DNA of 64,000 nt, taken from the NCBI GenBank assembly GCA_963830365.1, contig CAWHMU010000021.1:16339-80338 (forward strand), in the 5' to 3' direction. Shown here piece by piece: positions 9,331-48,499 of this stretch. The position numbers were made by a program, and so were the translations under genes. The notes beneath the pieces were generated by a model that was not told the DNA's origin, made no database searches, and was given only the letters and a program-made list of their open reading frames with translations. This DNA is from an uncultured Chlamydiae bacterium (GTDB lineage: Bacteria; Chlamydiota; Chlamydiia; Chlamydiales; Parachlamydiaceae). The first letter of the stretch is position 1. Each line of letters begins with the position of its first letter.

Positions 9331-10479
9331 ATGCAGGAAAACAAGGCCCCACTTTTACTTGCGCACTATAAGGCCAGCCATTCTTTTGAAGAGACATTGA
9401 ATAGCATCGAAACCTTCGTCGCCAAGCAAGACGGCAGCAACTTAAATATCTGCCTGGCGACCCCCTTTTCATTCATTGAGCCGCTAATACAGCATTTTGC
9501 TGATAAAAAAGTGACTGTCGGCGCCGAACACCTGCTCAGCGTGGCAGAGGGAAGTTTCACGGCCTCTATTGCCGGCAGCATGCTTACAGAGGCCGGCGCG
9601 CAATTTGTGCTTATCGGTTCAAATGATGAACGCCGCGACAGCAGTTTCCAGATAGCAGCGCTTAAAAGCAAGCTGCAGAGAGCTTTATCTGCCGGCTTAC
9701 GCCCCATCCTCTGCATCGGCGAGACCGAAGAAGAATTCCATAACGACGCCTCGCACACCGTTTTAACAAAGCAGCTGACTGAATCCTTAGCCGACATGCC
9801 GCCCGAAGAGCTTGCTAAGCTATCTCTGCTTTATGATGCCGCCTGGATCAATCGCATCCCATGGGAAGCGTCCAATCCAGCGTTGCAAAAGGCCTATAAA
9901 ACTTTTAACGACATCCTAGCCGCCACATTTACTCCAGAAGTTTTGCCCCATATTAAAGTCATGTATGCTGTCCCAACCTACAGCAGCGAGCTGCCCCAAG
10001 TCATCGCCGCCCTGCCGGCGGCCGGTTACTCACTAGGGGAACTAAATGCCGCTGGCCAGCTGAACATCGCTTCCCTGCCGCCAGTAGTCTATCAACCTGT
10101 GCCTGCCGCGACAATCCCCTCACCAACCGTCAGCCGGACACCGCCCATTGAAAGACCTACCGCCAAAGAAGAGCCGCCGGCAATGACCCTAGAGGAGGGC
10201 CTGCCGCCTGAGTCTGCCATCAGTGAAGATCCCATGCTGCCGGCTGATGAGCTGCCCGCTCCACCAAAAAAAGTAAGAAGAAGCAGAAAAAAAACGGCTG
10301 CCCCAACCCCTGAAGATGCCCCTGTCGAAACTGAAACCGCCAAAGAAGTGCTGCCGGCTGATAAGCTGCCCGCTCCACCAAAAAAAGTAAGAAGAAGCAG
10401 AAAAAAAACGGATGCGCCAACCACTGAAGATGCCCCTGCCGAAACTGAAACCGGTCAAGAGCTAGATAAAAACCCGTAA
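9331..10479 (+). CDS. Triosephosphate isomerase-like protein, predicted inactive, with Pro/Glu/Lys-rich tail
   Basis: TIM motifs recognisable (EGSFTASI, PILCIGET), but GHSERR reads GSNDERR, YEPVWAIG reads YDAAWINR and YGGS is lost. Confidence 0.85.
   Translation: MQENKAPLLLAHYKASHSFEETLNSIETFVAKQDGSNLNICLATPFSFIEPLIQHFADKKVTVGAEHLLSVAEGSFTASIAGSMLTEAGAQFVLIGSNDERRDSSFQIAALKSKLQRALSAGLRPILCIGETEEEFHNDASHTVLTKQLTESLADMPPEELAKLSLLYDAAWINRIPWEASNPALQKAYKTFNDILAATFTPEVLPHIKVMYAVPTYSSELPQVIAALPAAGYSLGELNAAGQLNIASLPPVVYQPVPAATIPSPTVSRTPPIERPTAKEEPPAMTLEEGLPPESAISEDPMLPADELPAPPKKVRRSRKKTAAPTPEDAPVETETAKEVLPADKLPAPPKKVRRSRKKTDAPTTEDAPAETETGQELDKNP
10237..10455 (+). repeat. 114-bp coding duplication (LPADxLPAPPKKVRRSRKKT...)
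   Basis: ctgccggctgat..ctgcccgctccaccaaaaaaagtaagaagaagcag at 10237 and 10351. Confidence 0.95.
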
Positions 10480-40238: not shown

Positions 40239-41675
40239 TTATGGCGTGGGCGTGATTGTCACTTTGAAGATATAGGATGAGGCTGTCGAATCCGTGATCA
40301 CATTGGTATTCGGCAGCGTGCTTTGGATGCCCCCTACAATATAGCCGATGACGGTAGGATTTGCCCCCAAAGCATCCAGGTCGACCACGCCATTGCTAAA
40401 GACAGGCATGTCCTCGGCCATGAAGAAATGCGAACCGGCGCCGAACAAGAGCTGGTTGCCGGGGTTGGACTGGGTCGAAAGGATCACCGGGTAGCTGCTA
40501 TTCATCAAATATTGCGTGTAGTTTCCATGATTATCCCGTTTGATAGTCGTCACTTCGTTAATAAAGGGTATTTCCTCATCCACCTGAAAGGCGCCGTTCT
40601 GGATGAATCCGTAGCTGATGCCGCCAAAAAGCACGCTGTACATATCCTTACTTTTTTTGGAGAACAATTCCAGATTGGACGCTTGATAATGGTTCATGGC
40701 CTGCTTAAAGGCCTTATGAGGCTTTTCCATATGCGGCTTGCCATGGCGGTCGATCTCCACCGGCACCGTCCACACCCCTGTATCCAGGGTAAACACGCCT
40801 GCAAAAGCAATCAAGCCGGGCTGATAGCTGCCGCCTTGATGAAAGATAGCAGGCACGATATTCAAATCGCGCCGGCGATAATAGTTTTTTTTCTCATCGG
40901 GCTTGGCGGGAAGGAATTTGACATCCAGATTGACGCCGTCATCCTTCAGGCGGAAACGGCGCACCTGTTCGCTGTACATCCCATTGGATTCGTCGAAATA
41001 AAAGCCCGTAAAATTCTGACCGAACACCAGCAATATAATGTCGTCGTCGATTTGAAACATATCGCCGCCGGTGATTTGGAAAACGGGATCGGAAATCTGA
41101 CGGATATATTGCGCGGCCGTCTGTCCGGGCGAGGGGTTGATCACCCAGCTCATCAGACCGGGGATGTTGATGGCTGTCAGGGTGTCTTTGGTGGAAAACT
41201 GACCGGTAGCGGTGATGACGCCATAGCCGCCGGTGATGTATAATGTGTCGCCGTTCCATTCGGATTGTGGGGAAGTGACCGACAGCGTATCGATCTGTTC
41301 CTGAGTTAAACCTGAAGAAGGATCGTATAAGGAACGTGAATAGGTCGTGCCGGTAGCAGGATTCACCACGTAGATGTCAGTATTTTGCGCCGTGGGGGGG
41401 AAGTTATCGTCCGTATTGCTGAAGTCGTGCAAACCGTTTGTGCGCCCCGCTAAAAAGAGCCATTGCCCATTATATGACGCCCAGGCATATGATTGGAGGC
41501 CATTCGGCAGGCTAAAATCCGCCTGTACGATCTGCAGTTGGAAAGTATCGAATGCATTTTGCAGAACAGGGCTCAACTCCTGGGTTTGATTCGGCGATGG
41601 GCTTGCAGCAGAAACTAAAGTTACGGAGCTTACCAGGTAGGCCAAGCACAAACGTTTAAAGGCTGTCATCAACAT
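40239..41675 (-). CDS. Secreted hypothetical protein (kelch-like GG motifs)
   Basis: Signal peptide; LAGRTNGLH, ITGGYG, ITGG, FGGIS, IVGGI. Confidence 0.8.
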   Translation of the reverse strand: MLMTAFKRLCLAYLVSSVTLVSAASPSPNQTQELSPVLQNAFDTFQLQIVQADFSLPNGLQSYAWASYNGQWLFLAGRTNGLHDFSNTDDNFPPTAQNTDIYVVNPATGTTYSRSLYDPSSGLTQEQIDTLSVTSPQSEWNGDTLYITGGYGVITATGQFSTKDTLTAINIPGLMSWVINPSPGQTAAQYIRQISDPVFQITGGDMFQIDDDIILLVFGQNFTGFYFDESNGMYSEQVRRFRLKDDGVNLDVKFLPAKPDEKKNYYRRRDLNIVPAIFHQGGSYQPGLIAFAGVFTLDTGVWTVPVEIDRHGKPHMEKPHKAFKQAMNHYQASNLELFSKKSKDMYSVLFGGISYGFIQNGAFQVDEEIPFINEVTTIKRDNHGNYTQYLMNSSYPVILSTQSNPGNQLLFGAGSHFFMAEDMPVFSNGVVDLDALGANPTVIGYIVGGIQSTLPNTNVITDSTASSYIFKVTITPTP

Positions 41676-41678
41676 ATA

Positions 41679-42737
41679 CTAATTTCCATCTGTTAAATTT
41701 TTGGGCATTAAAAAATCTGCGATAAAGACTTGGCTGGTCTTATCGGAACCCCGCTTGGAAGTCCATAATAGCTTATGGCCATCATTGCTAAACACGGGCA
41801 GGCCGTCAAAAGTCGGACTATGCGTCAAACGATATGATGCCCCTGTCTGCACATTGAGCAGATAGATTTCATAATGGGCATGTCCATGCAATGAAGTGGT
41901 ATAGGCGATGACTTTGCCTTCAGGATGCCAGTATGGTGCCCAGTTGACGGCAGCATTATGTGTCAATTGCCTTAAGTTTGTGCCGTCGGCATTGATAACA
42001 TAGATCTGCAGATAATCGGGTTTGTCGTAATCGGCCCTGAAGACAATCTGGCTGTTGTCGGGGGAAAAGAACGACCCTCCATTATAGCCTTGTGTTGTAT
42101 CTGTGACAGGCTGGACAGCAGAGCCGTCAGCTTGCATGGTATAGATGTTCATGCTGCCACTTTTGTTGCTGGCAAACACAATGCGGGAGCCGTCGGAGGC
42201 ATAGGCGCATTCGGCATGGTAAGCAGGACCTGTCGTCAAGGGCTGCAGATGGGAGCCATCCGGATCGGCTTCATAAATATTCATATAAGGAGTGAATTGC
42301 CAGGCGTAGCGCCCTCCCTGGCGTTGATATCCCGGCACATCTATGTGGGTATCGCCAAGCTGTGGATCGTCATGGCTGGAGGCGAAGATGATCTTTTTGC
42401 CATCGGGTCTGAAGAAGGCACACGTACAGGCCCCGCGTCCTGTGCTTACCATCCTTGGCACTCCCTCATCGAGATTTAACGTATAAATCTGATAGTGTTC
42501 TTGTCCGGCGGCAACCGCCTGGAAGATAATGGTCTTGCCATCCGGCGAAAAATAAGCTTCTCCGGCTTTCTCAAAACCCATCGCAGGGAAAGTCACCTGC
42601 CGTATGTTTTTTAAGGATATGGCTTCAAGCATAGTGTCGAAGATTTCTTCAGCATAAACTTCTCCTGCATAGCAGAAAGACTGAAACCCGGATACGCAGA
42701 GGCAGAAAAATAGGACATGAAATCTAATTCTCATCAT
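41679..42737 (-). CDS. TolB-like (PD40 repeat) beta-propeller protein
   Basis: Repeated FSPDGxxIxF...YQIY motifs. Confidence 0.88.
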   Translation of the reverse strand: MMRIRFHVLFFCLCVSGFQSFCYAGEVYAEEIFDTMLEAISLKNIRQVTFPAMGFEKAGEAYFSPDGKTIIFQAVAAGQEHYQIYTLNLDEGVPRMVSTGRGACTCAFFRPDGKKIIFASSHDDPQLGDTHIDVPGYQRQGGRYAWQFTPYMNIYEADPDGSHLQPLTTGPAYHAECAYASDGSRIVFASNKSGSMNIYTMQADGSAVQPVTDTTQGYNGGSFFSPDNSQIVFRADYDKPDYLQIYVINADGTNLRQLTHNAAVNWAPYWHPEGKVIAYTTSLHGHAHYEIYLLNVQTGASYRLTHSPTFDGLPVFSNDGHKLLWTSKRGSDKTSQVFIADFLMPKNLTDGN

Positions 42738-42740
42738 ATT

Positions 42741-43127
42741 TTAGCCTTCAACAGATTGTTCATTAGAAGCAAGTGGAGGTAGGAATAAGCCGAGTGTACC
42801 CAAGGCCAAGATTTCAATCATGGCAATGCGCACCAAGTTATACTGTTGATGGAATGTCACAGGCATCCCAGCTCCTTGTGTCAGCCAGGCGGCTGTTTGC
42901 ATACCTGCAGCAAGGGAAATGAGCTGCACAGGGATTTGCAATATCGATTCCTGGGTTTCTGTCGCCTTGGTTAAAATCTGGGCAATCACACTGCCTGCCA
43001 CCGATTGTGTCAGTGATGCCAAGGCGATGGCTTTCACATCTAAATTATAGTTTGCGAAGAACCTGGCATTGGCCGCATTAATCAGAAATTTCGAGAACTC
43101 TAACGTCGTATTAAACGCAATACTCAT
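42741..43127 (-). CDS. Hypothetical membrane protein
   Basis: 128-aa ORF in an operon-like run, AAGGT RBS. Confidence 0.65.
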   Translation of the reverse strand: MSIAFNTTLEFSKFLINAANARFFANYNLDVKAIALASLTQSVAGSVIAQILTKATETQESILQIPVQLISLAAGMQTAAWLTQGAGMPVTFHQQYNLVRIAMIEILALGTLGLFLPPLASNEQSVEG

Positions 43128-43195
43128 GGCTACCTTCTATGGCTACCTTCTTACTAGAAACATGACATGCAGCACCTTCTTCCGAGGCAGGGGCG

Positions 43196-43954
43196 CTATT
43201 TTTCTCCTCCCTCTTTCACTACCTGCACATAGACGTCAGCCTCCCCCCAAGTGAAGGTGGCGGTGAAATACTTCATCACCTCAAAGCATGGCTTGTCCGT
43301 GTAGTCTGTCAGAGGATAACTGACAGTAATAATCTTAGTCCCCACCGGCAGGCGCGAAAACTTTGCAGCCAGCGCCTTGATGGCCTTGTCTTCCAGGCAT
43401 GTCCCATACAGATAACACACCGTAGCTCCTGTGAAGTTGCTATCGCAAATATCTGCCAAACGGAATTCGATGCCTTTGACGCCAAGTTTGTTTTTTATGC
43501 GGTTGGCGCGTTCGACAAATTCGGGCACATATTCGATGCCTACGACCTTGCAGCCGATGATGCTATGCAGCCAAAAACACCCCCGTCCCCGACCTGCGCC
43601 AAGCTCATAGACGCAATCTTTAGGGCCGATGCCGCTTGCGCGCGCAATCAGCTCCAGCGTCGTCAGGGGCGTTTCACCATAGGCGTAGATATCCTTATCA
43701 CCCTTATGCATCAAAAAGCGCTTGCTGATGGAATAGGGGTTGTGAAAGAGATACATCAGCCGCAAGGCAATATCTGCCTTGAGAAACGACAGGTTGCCAT
43801 AGTACCGGCAGGCTACTTTAATAAATTCTATGATATTGCGCAAACACACCACAAAATTTATCCAGAGAAGGACTAAAAACTCTCTGATACTCATGTGTTC
43901 GCTTTTCTCGATGGAATGGTGCATTGAGTCTCTCCAAATAGATTGTCGTTTCAA
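43196..43954 (-). CDS. Class I SAM-dependent methyltransferase
   Basis: YGETP, YELGAGRG, VVGIE; overlaps the mgtE stop; start uncertain. Confidence 0.85.
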   Translation of the reverse strand: MKRQSIWRDSMHHSIEKSEHMSIREFLVLLWINFVVCLRNIIEFIKVACRYYGNLSFLKADIALRLMYLFHNPYSISKRFLMHKGDKDIYAYGETPLTTLELIARASGIGPKDCVYELGAGRGRGCFWLHSIIGCKVVGIEYVPEFVERANRIKNKLGVKGIEFRLADICDSNFTGATVCYLYGTCLEDKAIKALAAKFSRLPVGTKIITVSYPLTDYTDKPCFEVMKYFTATFTWGEADVYVQVVKEGGEK

Positions 43955-45441
43955 GCAAAAATAGGATAGATAACGCGGGCGATAAGAAAAAACATCAACG
44001 TCGATAGCACGTCATTGAAAGCCGTTACAATCGGTCCCGAGGCCACTGCCGGATCTATGCCGAAACGGGCAAAAAAGAACGGCGAAAATGTCCCCAGCCC
44101 CGTGGCCATCAAACAAGCTCCCAGCAAACCGACACTGACTGTCGTACCTACGGCCAGCGGATCGCCGCCGGAATTGTGGATTTGAAAATGATTGAGGAGA
44201 TAGACGACAAGGCCGCAAAAAACGCCAAAGACACACCCAATAAGCAGGCCGATGCCAAGCTCCTGACTCACCGCATTCATGCGCGAGCCGCTGGAAAGTC
44301 CGCCGGTTGACATCCCGCGCACGAGGATAGTACTGCACTGCAGGCCCACATTTCCGGACATGCCGGCGATCAACGGCACAAAGAACGGCACATAGACAAA
44401 CCATAAGCGGTCTTTGAAATGCGCCATGGCAGTGGCTGTCACCAATCCGGCACAAAGGGTCACTAGCAGCCATGGGGCGCGCAAAATAAAACGCTCTAGG
44501 ATGGGGGCCTGTTCGCTCACATCCTCGGCGGTACCGGCGATATTGGCGATCGTTTCATCGGCGATATCTTCCATGGCCTCTACGACATCTTCATAGGTGA
44601 TGACGCCGATTAGATGGTCTTCCTCATCAACCACCGGCAAGGCGGGGATTTTATATCTTTCCACTAGATCGACGACCTCATCACGCGAATCATCGGCGGT
44701 CACCTTGTGCAAAACAGGGCGCATAACCTGTCGCAGGGGTAGATATGCAGGATTTACCATCAGGTTGCGTCCAGGCACAAAACCGGCCAAGGCGCCATCG
44801 TCGGTGAGTACAAAAATGCAGCGGGTCAATTCAATACCCGGATTATCGCGGATGCAGGCCGTCACTTCACCGATGGTGGCATGCATATGGAAAGCAAAAA
44901 ATTCGTTGGTCATCAGGCGGCCGGCGCTATGCCTGTCATGTTGCTGCAAATCGCGGATGCGGGCAGCTTTTTTCGGATCGAGCTGCTCTAAAACGCGCTT
45001 CAAGCGCCGATCGGACATATCGTCCAGGATCCAGACGGCTTCATCCGGCGGCATCTTTTCAATCAGGCGGTTGATCTCTTTATCATCGATTTGACGGAAG
45101 ATGGCACTGCGGGTATTGCTACCGGTATTGATCATGAAAATTATCTTAGCATTCAAATCGGGCAGGTTGTCATAGACGACAACGCGGGCGCTGGGCGGCA
45201 GCCGTGTAACAGCATGGGCAAGGTCGATGGGATCGTGTTCGCTTGCGATTTTGGCAACATCATGCAGCAGAACTTGCGATGTCTGCTTATGGAAAGCGCT
45301 TTCAAGTTTTTCATTAAGTACATCATCGAGGTGGCTAATCTTTGAATCCATAAGATTGCCCGTCGACGTGCTGTAATCATCCAACTCTTGATGTCTGCCC
45401 TCAAAATCAGCTGTGTGCTCACCATGGGATTTACTTTCCAT
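43951..45441 (-). CDS. mgtE: Magnesium transporter MgtE
   Basis: N-domain, CBS pair (SAGRLMT, LPVVD), RAPWL, GNVGLQ, DPAVASGP...ND; ATG 45441 after GGAGGG. Confidence 0.96.
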   Translation of the reverse strand: MESKSHGEHTADFEGRHQELDDYSTSTGNLMDSKISHLDDVLNEKLESAFHKQTSQVLLHDVAKIASEHDPIDLAHAVTRLPPSARVVVYDNLPDLNAKIIFMINTGSNTRSAIFRQIDDKEINRLIEKMPPDEAVWILDDMSDRRLKRVLEQLDPKKAARIRDLQQHDRHSAGRLMTNEFFAFHMHATIGEVTACIRDNPGIELTRCIFVLTDDGALAGFVPGRNLMVNPAYLPLRQVMRPVLHKVTADDSRDEVVDLVERYKIPALPVVDEEDHLIGVITYEDVVEAMEDIADETIANIAGTAEDVSEQAPILERFILRAPWLLVTLCAGLVTATAMAHFKDRLWFVYVPFFVPLIAGMSGNVGLQCSTILVRGMSTGGLSSGSRMNAVSQELGIGLLIGCVFGVFCGLVVYLLNHFQIHNSGGDPLAVGTTVSVGLLGACLMATGLGTFSPFFFARFGIDPAVASGPIVTAFNDVLSTLMFFLIARVIYPIFA

Positions 45442-45457
45442 CTTCCCTCCTGATACA

Positions 45458-46339
45458 GGCACTCAATATACTGGCACTCAATATACTGGCACTCAATATA
45501 CTGGCACTCAATATACTGGCACTCAATATACTGGCACTCAATATACTGGCACTCAATATACTGGCACTCAATATACTGGCACTCAATATACTGGCACTCA
45601 ATATACTGGCACTCAATATACTGGCACTCAATATACTGGCACTCAATATACTGGCACTCAATATACTGGCACTCAATATACTGGCACTCAATATACTGGC
45701 ACTCAATATACTGGCACTCAATATACTGGCACTCAATATACTGGCACTCAATATACTGGCACTCAATATACTGGCACTCAATATACTGGCACTCAATATA
45801 CTGGCACTCAATATACTGGCACTCAATATACTGGCACTCAATATACTGGCACTTAATATACTGGTATTCAATATACTGGTATTCAATATACTGGCATTCA
45901 ATATACTGGCACTCAATATACTGGCACTCAATATACTGGCACTCAATATACTGGCACTCAATATACTGGCACTCAATATACTGGCACTCAATATACTGGC
46001 ACTCAATATACTGGCACTCAATATACTGGCACTCAATATACTGGCACTCAATATACTGGCACTCAATATACTGGCACTCAATATACTGGCACTCAATATA
46101 CTGGCACTCAATATACTGGCACTCAATATACTGGCACTCAATATACTGGCACTCAATATACTGGCACTCAATATACTGGCACTCAATATACTGGCACTCA
46201 ATATACTGGCACTCAATATACTGGCACTCAATATACTGGCACTCAATATACTGGCACTCAATATACTGGCACTCAATATACTGGCACTCAATATACTGGC
46301 ACTCAATATACTGGCACTCAATATACTGGCACTCAATAT
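45458..46339. repeat. 15-bp tandem array (ctggcactcaatata), about 59 copies
   Basis: Directly visible; four variant units at about 45851-45900. Confidence 0.97.
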
Positions 46340-46666
46340 TGTTTGCCATGACGGCATTGTTCACAGATAAGTTGGTTTTGACAAACTATGATGCAACCTA
46401 TATTGCGACAAGATATTCTTTTTTACGAGTTTCTCTGGGGAGAGTGTACTTCTAAAAAAACAATTCCCACAAGCAAAAAGCGCCATGGTGATTTGGCATG
46501 GTGATTTGGATTGCAGTCAGGCTGCCCCTTTAATCCAAGCCCTATCTGGCTTGCCCCCCTTGCCATATACAGCGGCTACCGTCATTATTTTAACTTTAAT
46601 ATTGTAATTTTACAAAGTTACTGCTATGATTACTTCTTTTTAAACCTAAAAAATAACAAAAATCCT

Positions 46667-48499
46667 ATGTATTCACCAAAAAAAATTCGTAATATCGCCA
46701 TTATTGCCCACATTGACCACGGCAAAACAACTATGCTTGACAGCATGCTCAAGCAATCCCATGTCTTTAGAGACAACGAAGCTGTCCCCGAACGTGCTAT
46801 GGATTCCTACGATCAAGAAAAAGAACGCGGCATCACCATCTTCGCCAAACACACCTCGGTACGTTTCATTGATGACGCTGGTGACGATTACAAAATCAAT
46901 ATCATCGATACACCGGGTCACGCAGACTTCTCAGGCGAAGTGGAGCGCATCCTCGGCATGGTCAACTCAGTATTGCTGCTGGTCGATGCCCAGGAAGGCC
47001 CTATGCCGCAAACGCGCTTTGTGCTGTCCAAATCCCTGAAAATGGGCCTGCGCCCTATCGTCGTGCTGAACAAAATCGACCGCCCACATGCTTCTCCGGA
47101 TGCCGTGCTGGATGCCACCTTCGATCTATTTAACGAACTCGGCGCAACCGATGCCCAGCTCGATTTCAGCTATTGCTATGCCTCCGGGCTTTCCGGCTTT
47201 GCCACGCACCAAGTCGACGATAAGCGCGTTGACATGCGTCCGCTTTTCGAACTCATCGTCTCGGCTGTAGATGCACCGCAGGGCAGCCTGGAAGAACCGT
47301 TCCTCATGCAAGCTGCCACGATCTCTTATGATGATTATGTGGGCAGACAAGCCTGCGGCAGGATTCTTGAAGGCTCCGTCAAAAAAGGCCAAATCGTCAT
47401 CCATTGTGATGCCGAAGGCAAGCAAACCAGATGCCCCATCACGCGCGTCGAAGGCTATTTGGGTTTGCATAAAATCGAAATGGATGAAGCTGGTGTAGGC
47501 GATATCGTCTCCCTTTCCGGCATTCCTGAAGTCATGATCGGCGATACGCTATGCGATCCAAAGAAAATCGTACGCCTGCCTCCTATCAAGCTGGATGAGC
47601 CCACCGTTTCTGTCGATATCACCGTCAACACCAGCCCCTTTGTCGGACAAAGCGGCAAACATGTCACCATGAACAAAATCCGCGATCGCCTAGAAAAGGA
47701 AAAGCGTGCCAATATCTCGTTGCGTATCTCGGAAAGCTCCGGCGATCAAGATAAAATCACCGTGGCCGGCCGCGGCGAATTGCACCTGTCGGTGTTGATT
47801 GAAGCCATGCGTCGCGAAGGTTATGAATTTAGCGTGTCTAAACCGCGTGTCATCATCAAAGAAGTCGACGGCGTCAAACTCGAACCAATAGAACGCGTGC
47901 ATATTGAAGTGCCTGAAGAATTTACCGGCAATATCATTGAAGAGCTATCACGTCGCCGTGGCGAAATGCAGCATTTGGATACCAACGAGCATAAAATAAC
48001 CAGCATGGAATTCGTCATGCCAACGCGCGGCCTGATGGGCTATCGCAATGACTTCTTGACGATCACGCGTGGCTTGGGCATTCTTACTTCGATCTTCGAA
48101 GAATTTGCCCCATGGAGAGGCTCTATCCCCGGACGTACCCGCGGTGTGCTTATTTCGGCCGGACCCGGCAAGACCAATGGCTACGCCTGCTTCAACCTGC
48201 AGGATCGTGGCGTGCTCTTCACCGGTCCTGGCGATGACGTCTATGAAGGCATGATCGTCGGCGCCAATAGCCGCGAAAACGATTTGATCGTCAATGTCAC
48301 CAAAGGCAAGCAGCTCACCAACGTCCGCGCTTCAGGCAGTGATGAAAACATCATCCTCATTCCTGCGCGCAGATTTACACTTGAGCAAGCCATCGATTAC
48401 ATTCAAGATGACGAACTCATTGAAGTGACACCGGATGCCATCCGCATGCGCAAACGTCACCTCACCGAACAAGATCGCAAACGCAAAGATAGTAAATAG
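46667..48499 (+). CDS. typA: Translational GTPase TypA/BipA
   Basis: [41 protein letters not shown]. Confidence 0.97.

Follow-up and report, generated by a model that had tools for sequence, protein, structure and literature searches.

A 15-bp minisatellite of some 59 units in the predicted 5′ leader of mgtE in an uncultured Parachlamydiaceae bacterium

The spacer between the divergent genes mgtE and typA of an uncultured Parachlamydiaceae bacterium holds a long array of 15-bp units that runs up to the mgtE Shine-Dalgarno (SD) sequence. The array is probably a minisatellite private to its lineage, lodged in an mgtE leader that tolerates inserts, with open frames that are incidental and with no role in sensing or coding. 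Coordinates refer to the window, the whole stretch of 64,000 nucleotides that was analysed.

The array occupies positions 45453-46339, where it is called as 59.1 copies with 99% matches and no indels; the unit reads ATTGAGTGCCAGTAT on the mgtE strand (−). On one side lies mgtE (43951..45441, − strand), an intact magnesium transporter gene of 496 aa that scores over the TIGR00400 cut-off and aligns in a single frame with relatives at 79-87% identity. On the other lies typA/bipA (46667..48499, + strand), an intact, divergent GTPase gene of 610 aa that scores over the TIGR01394 cut-off. An earlier sequence-only reading, made without database searches, had described about 59 units of 15 bp between these divergent genes, and the array is as described; its placing of the array end about 17 nt before the mgtE ATG stands if the terminal variant unit is left out, but with that unit the array ends 11 nt from the ATG at 45441. 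It is flush with the intact mgtE SD, AGGAGG (45446..45451, − strand; SD score 6/6), which adjoins the last unit. On the mgtE strand, four variant units (45902-45843) separate a first block of 29 canonical units from a second block of 25, and a terminal variant unit closes the array. The central variants (45843..45902, − strand) carry six substitutions, all G>A, which derive from three events, two of them nested and duplicated. An interrupted 22-bp palindrome seen in the sequence (46327..46348) overlaps the first unit and is possibly the seed of the repeat, although its folding is not significant (z −0.9). A CRISPR array is ruled out, since the units abut and have no spacers between them.

At 59 × 15 bp and 99%, the array falls within the satellite definition given in PMC6749651, at least four regular tandem units of 10-200 nt, and in this it resembles the bacterial intergenic minisatellites treated there. 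It differs from them in two respects: its 59 near-perfect copies stand far above the other short-unit repeats of the genome, and it fills the leader as far as the SD. Exact tandem runs with units of 9-20 bp number 183 in the genome and 10 in base-shuffled sequence, a lenient null. The two longest, of 29.5 and 26.4 copies, belong to the array, the next in the genome reaches 4.6, and the next array found by TRF has a 14-bp unit in 6.4 copies; the array exceeds every other short-unit repeat of the genome in length about tenfold. Expansion driven by DNA hairpins was considered and rejected, 399 of 500 shuffles folding as well or better; the mgtE strand is G-rich and likely the leading strand, which adds nothing to that case.

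Repeats of other kinds are also present. One dispersed hairpin motif has 203 matches in the genome, and CACAGAG-type hairpin repeats form tandem clusters at G000:C20:4599-6713 (164 bp × 12.9) and C42:125388-127036 (165 bp × 9.8). Further clusters lie at G000:C16:73690-79023 (384 bp × 14) and G000:C18:146-1364 (67 bp × 18.2 at 91% identity, with a CRISPR-like period). The window itself contains a 123-bp tandem repeat at 1-387 (6.9 copies on the contig), a 114 bp × 1.9 repeat at 10235-10453, and perfect 13-bp duplications at 43126-43151 and, within the mgtE-typA spacer, at 46484-46509.

It is likely that the array is transcribed as part of the mgtE 5′ leader, as indicated by a predicted promoter lying upstream of it. 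A two-box promoter model, trained on the spacers of 64 relatives with the genome itself held out, converged on a T-tract, TTG, a gap of 17-18 nt and TANNNT. It predicts a sigma66-type mgtE promoter at 46443..46472 (− strand; −35 TTGTGG, 18 nt, −10 TACACT) with 17.8 bits, compared with a training median of 14.6 and a 95th percentile of 10.1 for shuffled regions; such scores are not independent, because the training relatives are kin, and errors among the weaker calls are possible. The predicted −10 ends at 46443, beyond the array and 1001 nt before the ATG. Inside the array the best site reaches 0.8 bits by the same model, and the 55-odd GTGCCA-16-TATATT sites picked up there by a generic scan score from below zero to 0.8 bits and are rejected as promoters. 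In the closest relative (L002), a nearly identical promoter sequence lies 19 nt from the mgtE start, which suggests that promoter and SD have been driven apart by a gain of the array and of about 105 nt of unique sequence. This unique segment (46338..46442, − strand) contains both upstream ATGs; its folding is not beyond that of shuffles (z −0.8 and −1.2), and it finds only weak matches of at most 46 nt, in 16 of 399 other genomes of the phylum. A promoter-like site facing typA lies outside the array (46602..46630, + strand; consensus scan), with similar sequence in the closest relatives. The proposal that the array forms the mgtE leader thus keeps its positional half, given a predicted promoter 1.0 kb upstream and beyond the array, but no regulatory function is supported.

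The search covered 73 genomes of the family, in which this one alone represents its genus; its nearest relative by MgtE (87% identity) belongs to a different genus. Comparison covered 96 distinct mgtE loci, and in 65 relatives a divergent typA lies within the retrieved DNA. Measured to a conserved anchor, the mgtE-typA spacer has a median of 251 nt in these 65 loci, against 1315 nt here; the spacers of relatives, to which the earlier reading had looked for comparison, are short, and the 15-bp array is not conserved in them. Two relatives also have long spacers (910 and 1934 nt), through other inserts. The distance from the −10 to the mgtE start has a median of 59 nt in relatives and is longest, at 267 nt, in L064. 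The short spacers and leaders imply that a long leader is dispensable for mgtE in this family. Inserts in the spacer include hexamer repeats (L002, L094), hairpin elements (L007, L064, L069) and an inserted open frame (L069). The predicted L064 leader has a hairpin element and an unrelated 13-bp × 8.2 array (L064:2729-2933) with stops in all frames; the hairpin element is of the CACAGAG type, and the array extends from one of its arms. A 15 bp × 3.9 repeat in another relative (L123:1530-1588) apparently lies in the acidic N-terminal coding part of MgtE. The unit of the array described here is absent elsewhere in its own genome at 0-1 mismatch and is found in 0 of 72 family genomes when 27 nt are matched with up to 3 mismatches, and it has no exact match in viral, metagenome and genome collections, which may omit its own and very near genomes.

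The minisatellite would have started as a local duplication of 15 bases between the mgtE promoter and the SD, and would then have expanded by slippage or unequal recombination, a route suggested by the nested variant units and by the many short tandem duplications in the genome. Once transcribed, it could form a long G-U-rich duplex, with SD accessibility predicted to equal that of a two-copy array. The leader would tolerate such inserts, and the array may be near-neutral, perhaps helped by CorA, another magnesium transporter, which is present in the genome and possibly gives redundancy in magnesium transport. Two points weigh against the minisatellite reading. The array is an extreme length outlier, and DNA hairpins fail as the reason. 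It also lies flush with the SD, a position like that of the phase-variable promoter repeats described for Mycobacterium tuberculosis in PMC12817950. Furthermore, because the nearest relative is of a different genus, a young, selected species trait would look the same.

Near-perfect tandem units are expected to be unstable, and the array could be a contingency locus in which copy number varies in the population and tunes mgtE, for instance by way of the length of the leader, the folding of a duplex and decay of the RNA, or translational coupling through one of its open frames, (ILSAS)n, whose stop overlaps the mgtE start. This is unlikely, although several observations are in its favour: transcription of the array is predicted, and a single long G-U-rich duplex of about −467 kcal/mol is the predicted fold of the leader RNA. 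This holds for the mgtE strand only, where the energy per unit is −6.8 kcal/mol, compared with −1.4 on the other strand. In addition, the same leader in L064 has a separate array, but its unit is unrelated, 13 bp long and frame-breaking. The self-pairing is ordinary, 162 of 1000 shuffled units folding as well as the real one; the predicted pairing of the mgtE SD does not change between 2 and 30 copies; and the ILSAS ATG is without an SD. No terminator-like site is found in the array, and RNase III is not found in this 82%-complete genome, which leaves cleavage of the duplex unsupported. The functional part of the idea that a length-variable leader tunes mgtE is accordingly not supported: predicted SD access is constant over the copy numbers modelled, the array is not conserved and it matches no Rfam family.

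The closest precedent for such tuning considered here comes from M. tuberculosis, where promoter tandem repeats are described in PMC12817950 as phase-variable within a population, with a proposed effect on promoter strength. VNTR3690, before lpdA, is an example, and one of the repeats lies 12 bp upstream of that gene. The likeness lies in a tandem repeat immediately ahead of a gene, in the space between divergent or adjacent genes. The present array differs in that its unit, at 0.8 bits, scores as no promoter by the family model, unlike the promoter-carrying repeats, and in that its variation in copy number is putative.

A different kind of leader control had also been suggested by analogy. 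Mg2+-responsive leaders of transporter genes include the M-box riboswitch and MgtL-type peptides, the latter encoded by a short conserved open reading frame with its own SD. The likeness of the array to these systems consists in its place upstream of a magnesium transporter only. Rfam finds no M-box or other family in the window, and nothing at the mgtE loci of 10 relatives, apart from chance miRNA matches; the array also lacks a family-conserved leader and a short Pro-rich frame with an SD. As candidates for an MgtL-type peptide, the two frames of the array are rejected, at 308 and 398 aa, with SD matches of 2-3/6 and without conservation. Control of the M-box or MgtL kind is not supported, there being no Rfam match, no conservation and no SD at the upstream ATGs.

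It is quite unlikely that the cell carries a genuine but short repeat that the assembly lengthened or to which it added the central variants. The unit is present in the organism's DNA. In run X1, the stretch 41000-45500 gives four records, of which three flank records of 151-171 nt show zero differences and the fourth, from the array, is 45 nt long at depth 7.7, with no junction record. A record of 45 nt is what a closed loop of 31-mers gives for a 15-nt unit, so that reads with at least three tandem copies exist. At 15 × 7.7, it amounts to about 115 31-mers, close to the 121 that a single 151-nt read from within the array would contain. On the typA side, a single identical 176-nt record leaves the sequence adjoining the array uncovered and proves nothing. 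The run may share a sample with the assembly, though it looks unrelated, and its record lengths suggest short reads.

The figure of 59 copies and the central variants come from the assembly; the unit itself is also seen in short reads. Inflation would account for the array being a lone outlier in the genome and for variant units that sit exactly mid-array and are all G>A. Errors of the low-depth type do occur in this assembly: where contig ends overlap, they disagree by about 0.5%, in A/G changes and indels that cluster, much as in a low-depth long-read consensus, so that the assembly holds duplicated, error-bearing ends. Two such overlaps, at 99.5% identity, join G000:C15:32949-45605 with C31:1-12667 (12.7 kb) and C6:1-5172 with C33:1-5175 (5.2 kb). 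Against inflation stand insertion-sequence copies of 1.4 and 1.8 kb that are resolved mid-contig at 29448-30820 and 53952-55759, on both sides of the array. Both have many near-identical copies in the genome, at 99.4-100% identity to those on other contigs, and placing them requires reads longer than the array; the assembly thus appears to behave as one of long-read type. No frameshift interrupts the three genes that surround the array, each of which aligns with relatives in a single frame. The objection that the array is an assembly expansion, foreseen in the sequence-only reading as what would overturn it, is weakened by these placements, by the intact flanking genes and by the unit record in run X1.

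The array might alternatively be a row of operator sites that repress mgtE or titrate a factor such as HrcA or NrdR, a reading that is most improbable. Both hrcA and nrdR are present in the genome, and the unit has GCACTC in common with the arms of the genome's own CIRCE elements, before hrcA and a groES-like gene. CIRCE, however, consists of inverted 9-bp arms 9 bp apart, and the array offers only direct half-sites at 7/9; no CIRCE is found in it at up to 3 mismatches, in a search that recovered the sites before hrcA and groES. For NrdR, the unit matches 16 of 22 positions of the consensus published in PMC4009431, a level reached by 0.8% of shuffles, and alternate units lie 30 bp apart, within the spacing that PMC12051234 gives as tolerated. 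A family NrdR matrix was built from 30 Parachlamydiaceae boxes in 15 of 20 nrdB upstream regions (leave-one-out 8.7-21 bits); boxes were sought upstream of nrdB since nrdB precedes nrdA. This matrix recovers a true pair upstream of the genome's ribonucleotide reductase (37 bits) but gives the unit 0.4 bits, a score that 15,239 positions in the genome and 9% of shuffles match.

The same survey yields observations on NrdR sites elsewhere. A strong NrdR box pair, 32 bp apart, lies before a B12-dependent ribonucleoside-triphosphate reductase (L254, G000:C43:10709-10756), whose open frame of 558 aa covers positions 1-605 of a 724-position model and is possibly split or truncated. Upstream of nrdB in 20 family genomes (L234-L253), paired NrdR-like boxes occur in 15, with starts 20-22 bp apart. 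Their spacer of 4-6 bp, which sets them two helical turns apart, compares with 15-16 bp in most bacteria as reported in PMC12051234. All five loci scanned (L235, L237, L243, L244, L253) have cobalamin riboswitches upstream of the nrdB-nrdA operon, and at least three of them also have an NrdR box pair upstream of the riboswitch.

Two frames on the mgtE strand are open through the array, as originally noted: MANN(IECQY)n, of 398 aa (45153..46349), which runs 289 nt into mgtE, and MPSWQT(ILSAS)n, of 308 aa (45431..46357), whose stop lies just past the mgtE start, overlapping codons 3-4. The mgtE frame, also as noted, has a stop in every unit. Both open frames are judged incidental. Their persistence whatever the copy number and the absence of stops from the variant units, once read as signs of coding, are expected by chance: 5 of 6 frames of the array are open, and on a given strand two or all three frames stay open in 79% of shuffled units (n = 20,000). 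Single changes that create a stop in either frame number 6 of 45 overall and 0 of 4 among the possible G>A changes; in either frame, two of the three variant events are non-silent and one is silent. Both upstream ATGs match an SD at 2-3/6, compared with 6/6 for mgtE.

A Cys-rich repeat peptide had been proposed from the first of these frames, and either frame could in principle be a newborn gene for a pentapeptide-repeat beta-helix, metal-binding or disulfide-forming. Both pass Pfam cut-offs for pentapeptide families by marginal scores, the IECQY frame of 398 aa with PF13599 (40.3 bits, cut-off 38) and the ILSAS frame with PF00805 (22.3, cut-off 20.2), and the three opposite-strand frames give no Pfam match. 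AlphaFold2 returns an all-beta model for IECQY with pLDDT 93-98 across most of the repeat; an opposite-strand control, (YWHSI)n, nevertheless reaches pLDDT 94 in its best model (56-79 in the other four). Confident beta-solenoids for random repeats, and chance matches to pentapeptide families, are a described artefact (PMC11795689). The frames share a five-residue period with the proteins of PF00805 and PF13599, but they are perfect homopolymers with no capping parts. For the IECQY model, Foldseek finds no solved structure at E ≤ 0.001, none of 32 candidates is a homologue, and recognition in the Atlas is low (573, best score 0.88). The frame overruns mgtE, and the variant units turn its Cys into Tyr. 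The genome has a pentapeptide-repeat gene of its own, on contig C11, with no close match there to the 15-bp unit. The pentapeptide likeness is explained by the chance resemblance that perfect repeats show, and a newborn gene is highly improbable: the peptide proposal is left without an SD, a homologue or a solved-fold match, and a control frame folds as confidently in its best model.

If the array is an ordinary minisatellite, it is likely to serve as a strain-typing marker and to mean little beyond that. It also carries a warning for the annotation of repeats, as perfect 15-bp units give open frames, pentapeptide-family matches and confident AlphaFold2 solenoids by chance. A very unlikely but more consequential reading is that of a young, species-specific dial on magnesium uptake, in which the array would be transcribed as a G-U-rich RNA rod of about 430 bp in the mgtE leader, variable in length between cells, and its length, or the Mg2+-dependent folding of its tandem G-U pairs, would set mRNA stability or translation. 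Were this so, the 13-bp array of L064 would be a parallel invention. If copy number did tune MgtE, the array would represent repeat-based control of magnesium uptake in a family where no riboswitch shows in the mgtE leaders, a regulatory element caught at its birth.
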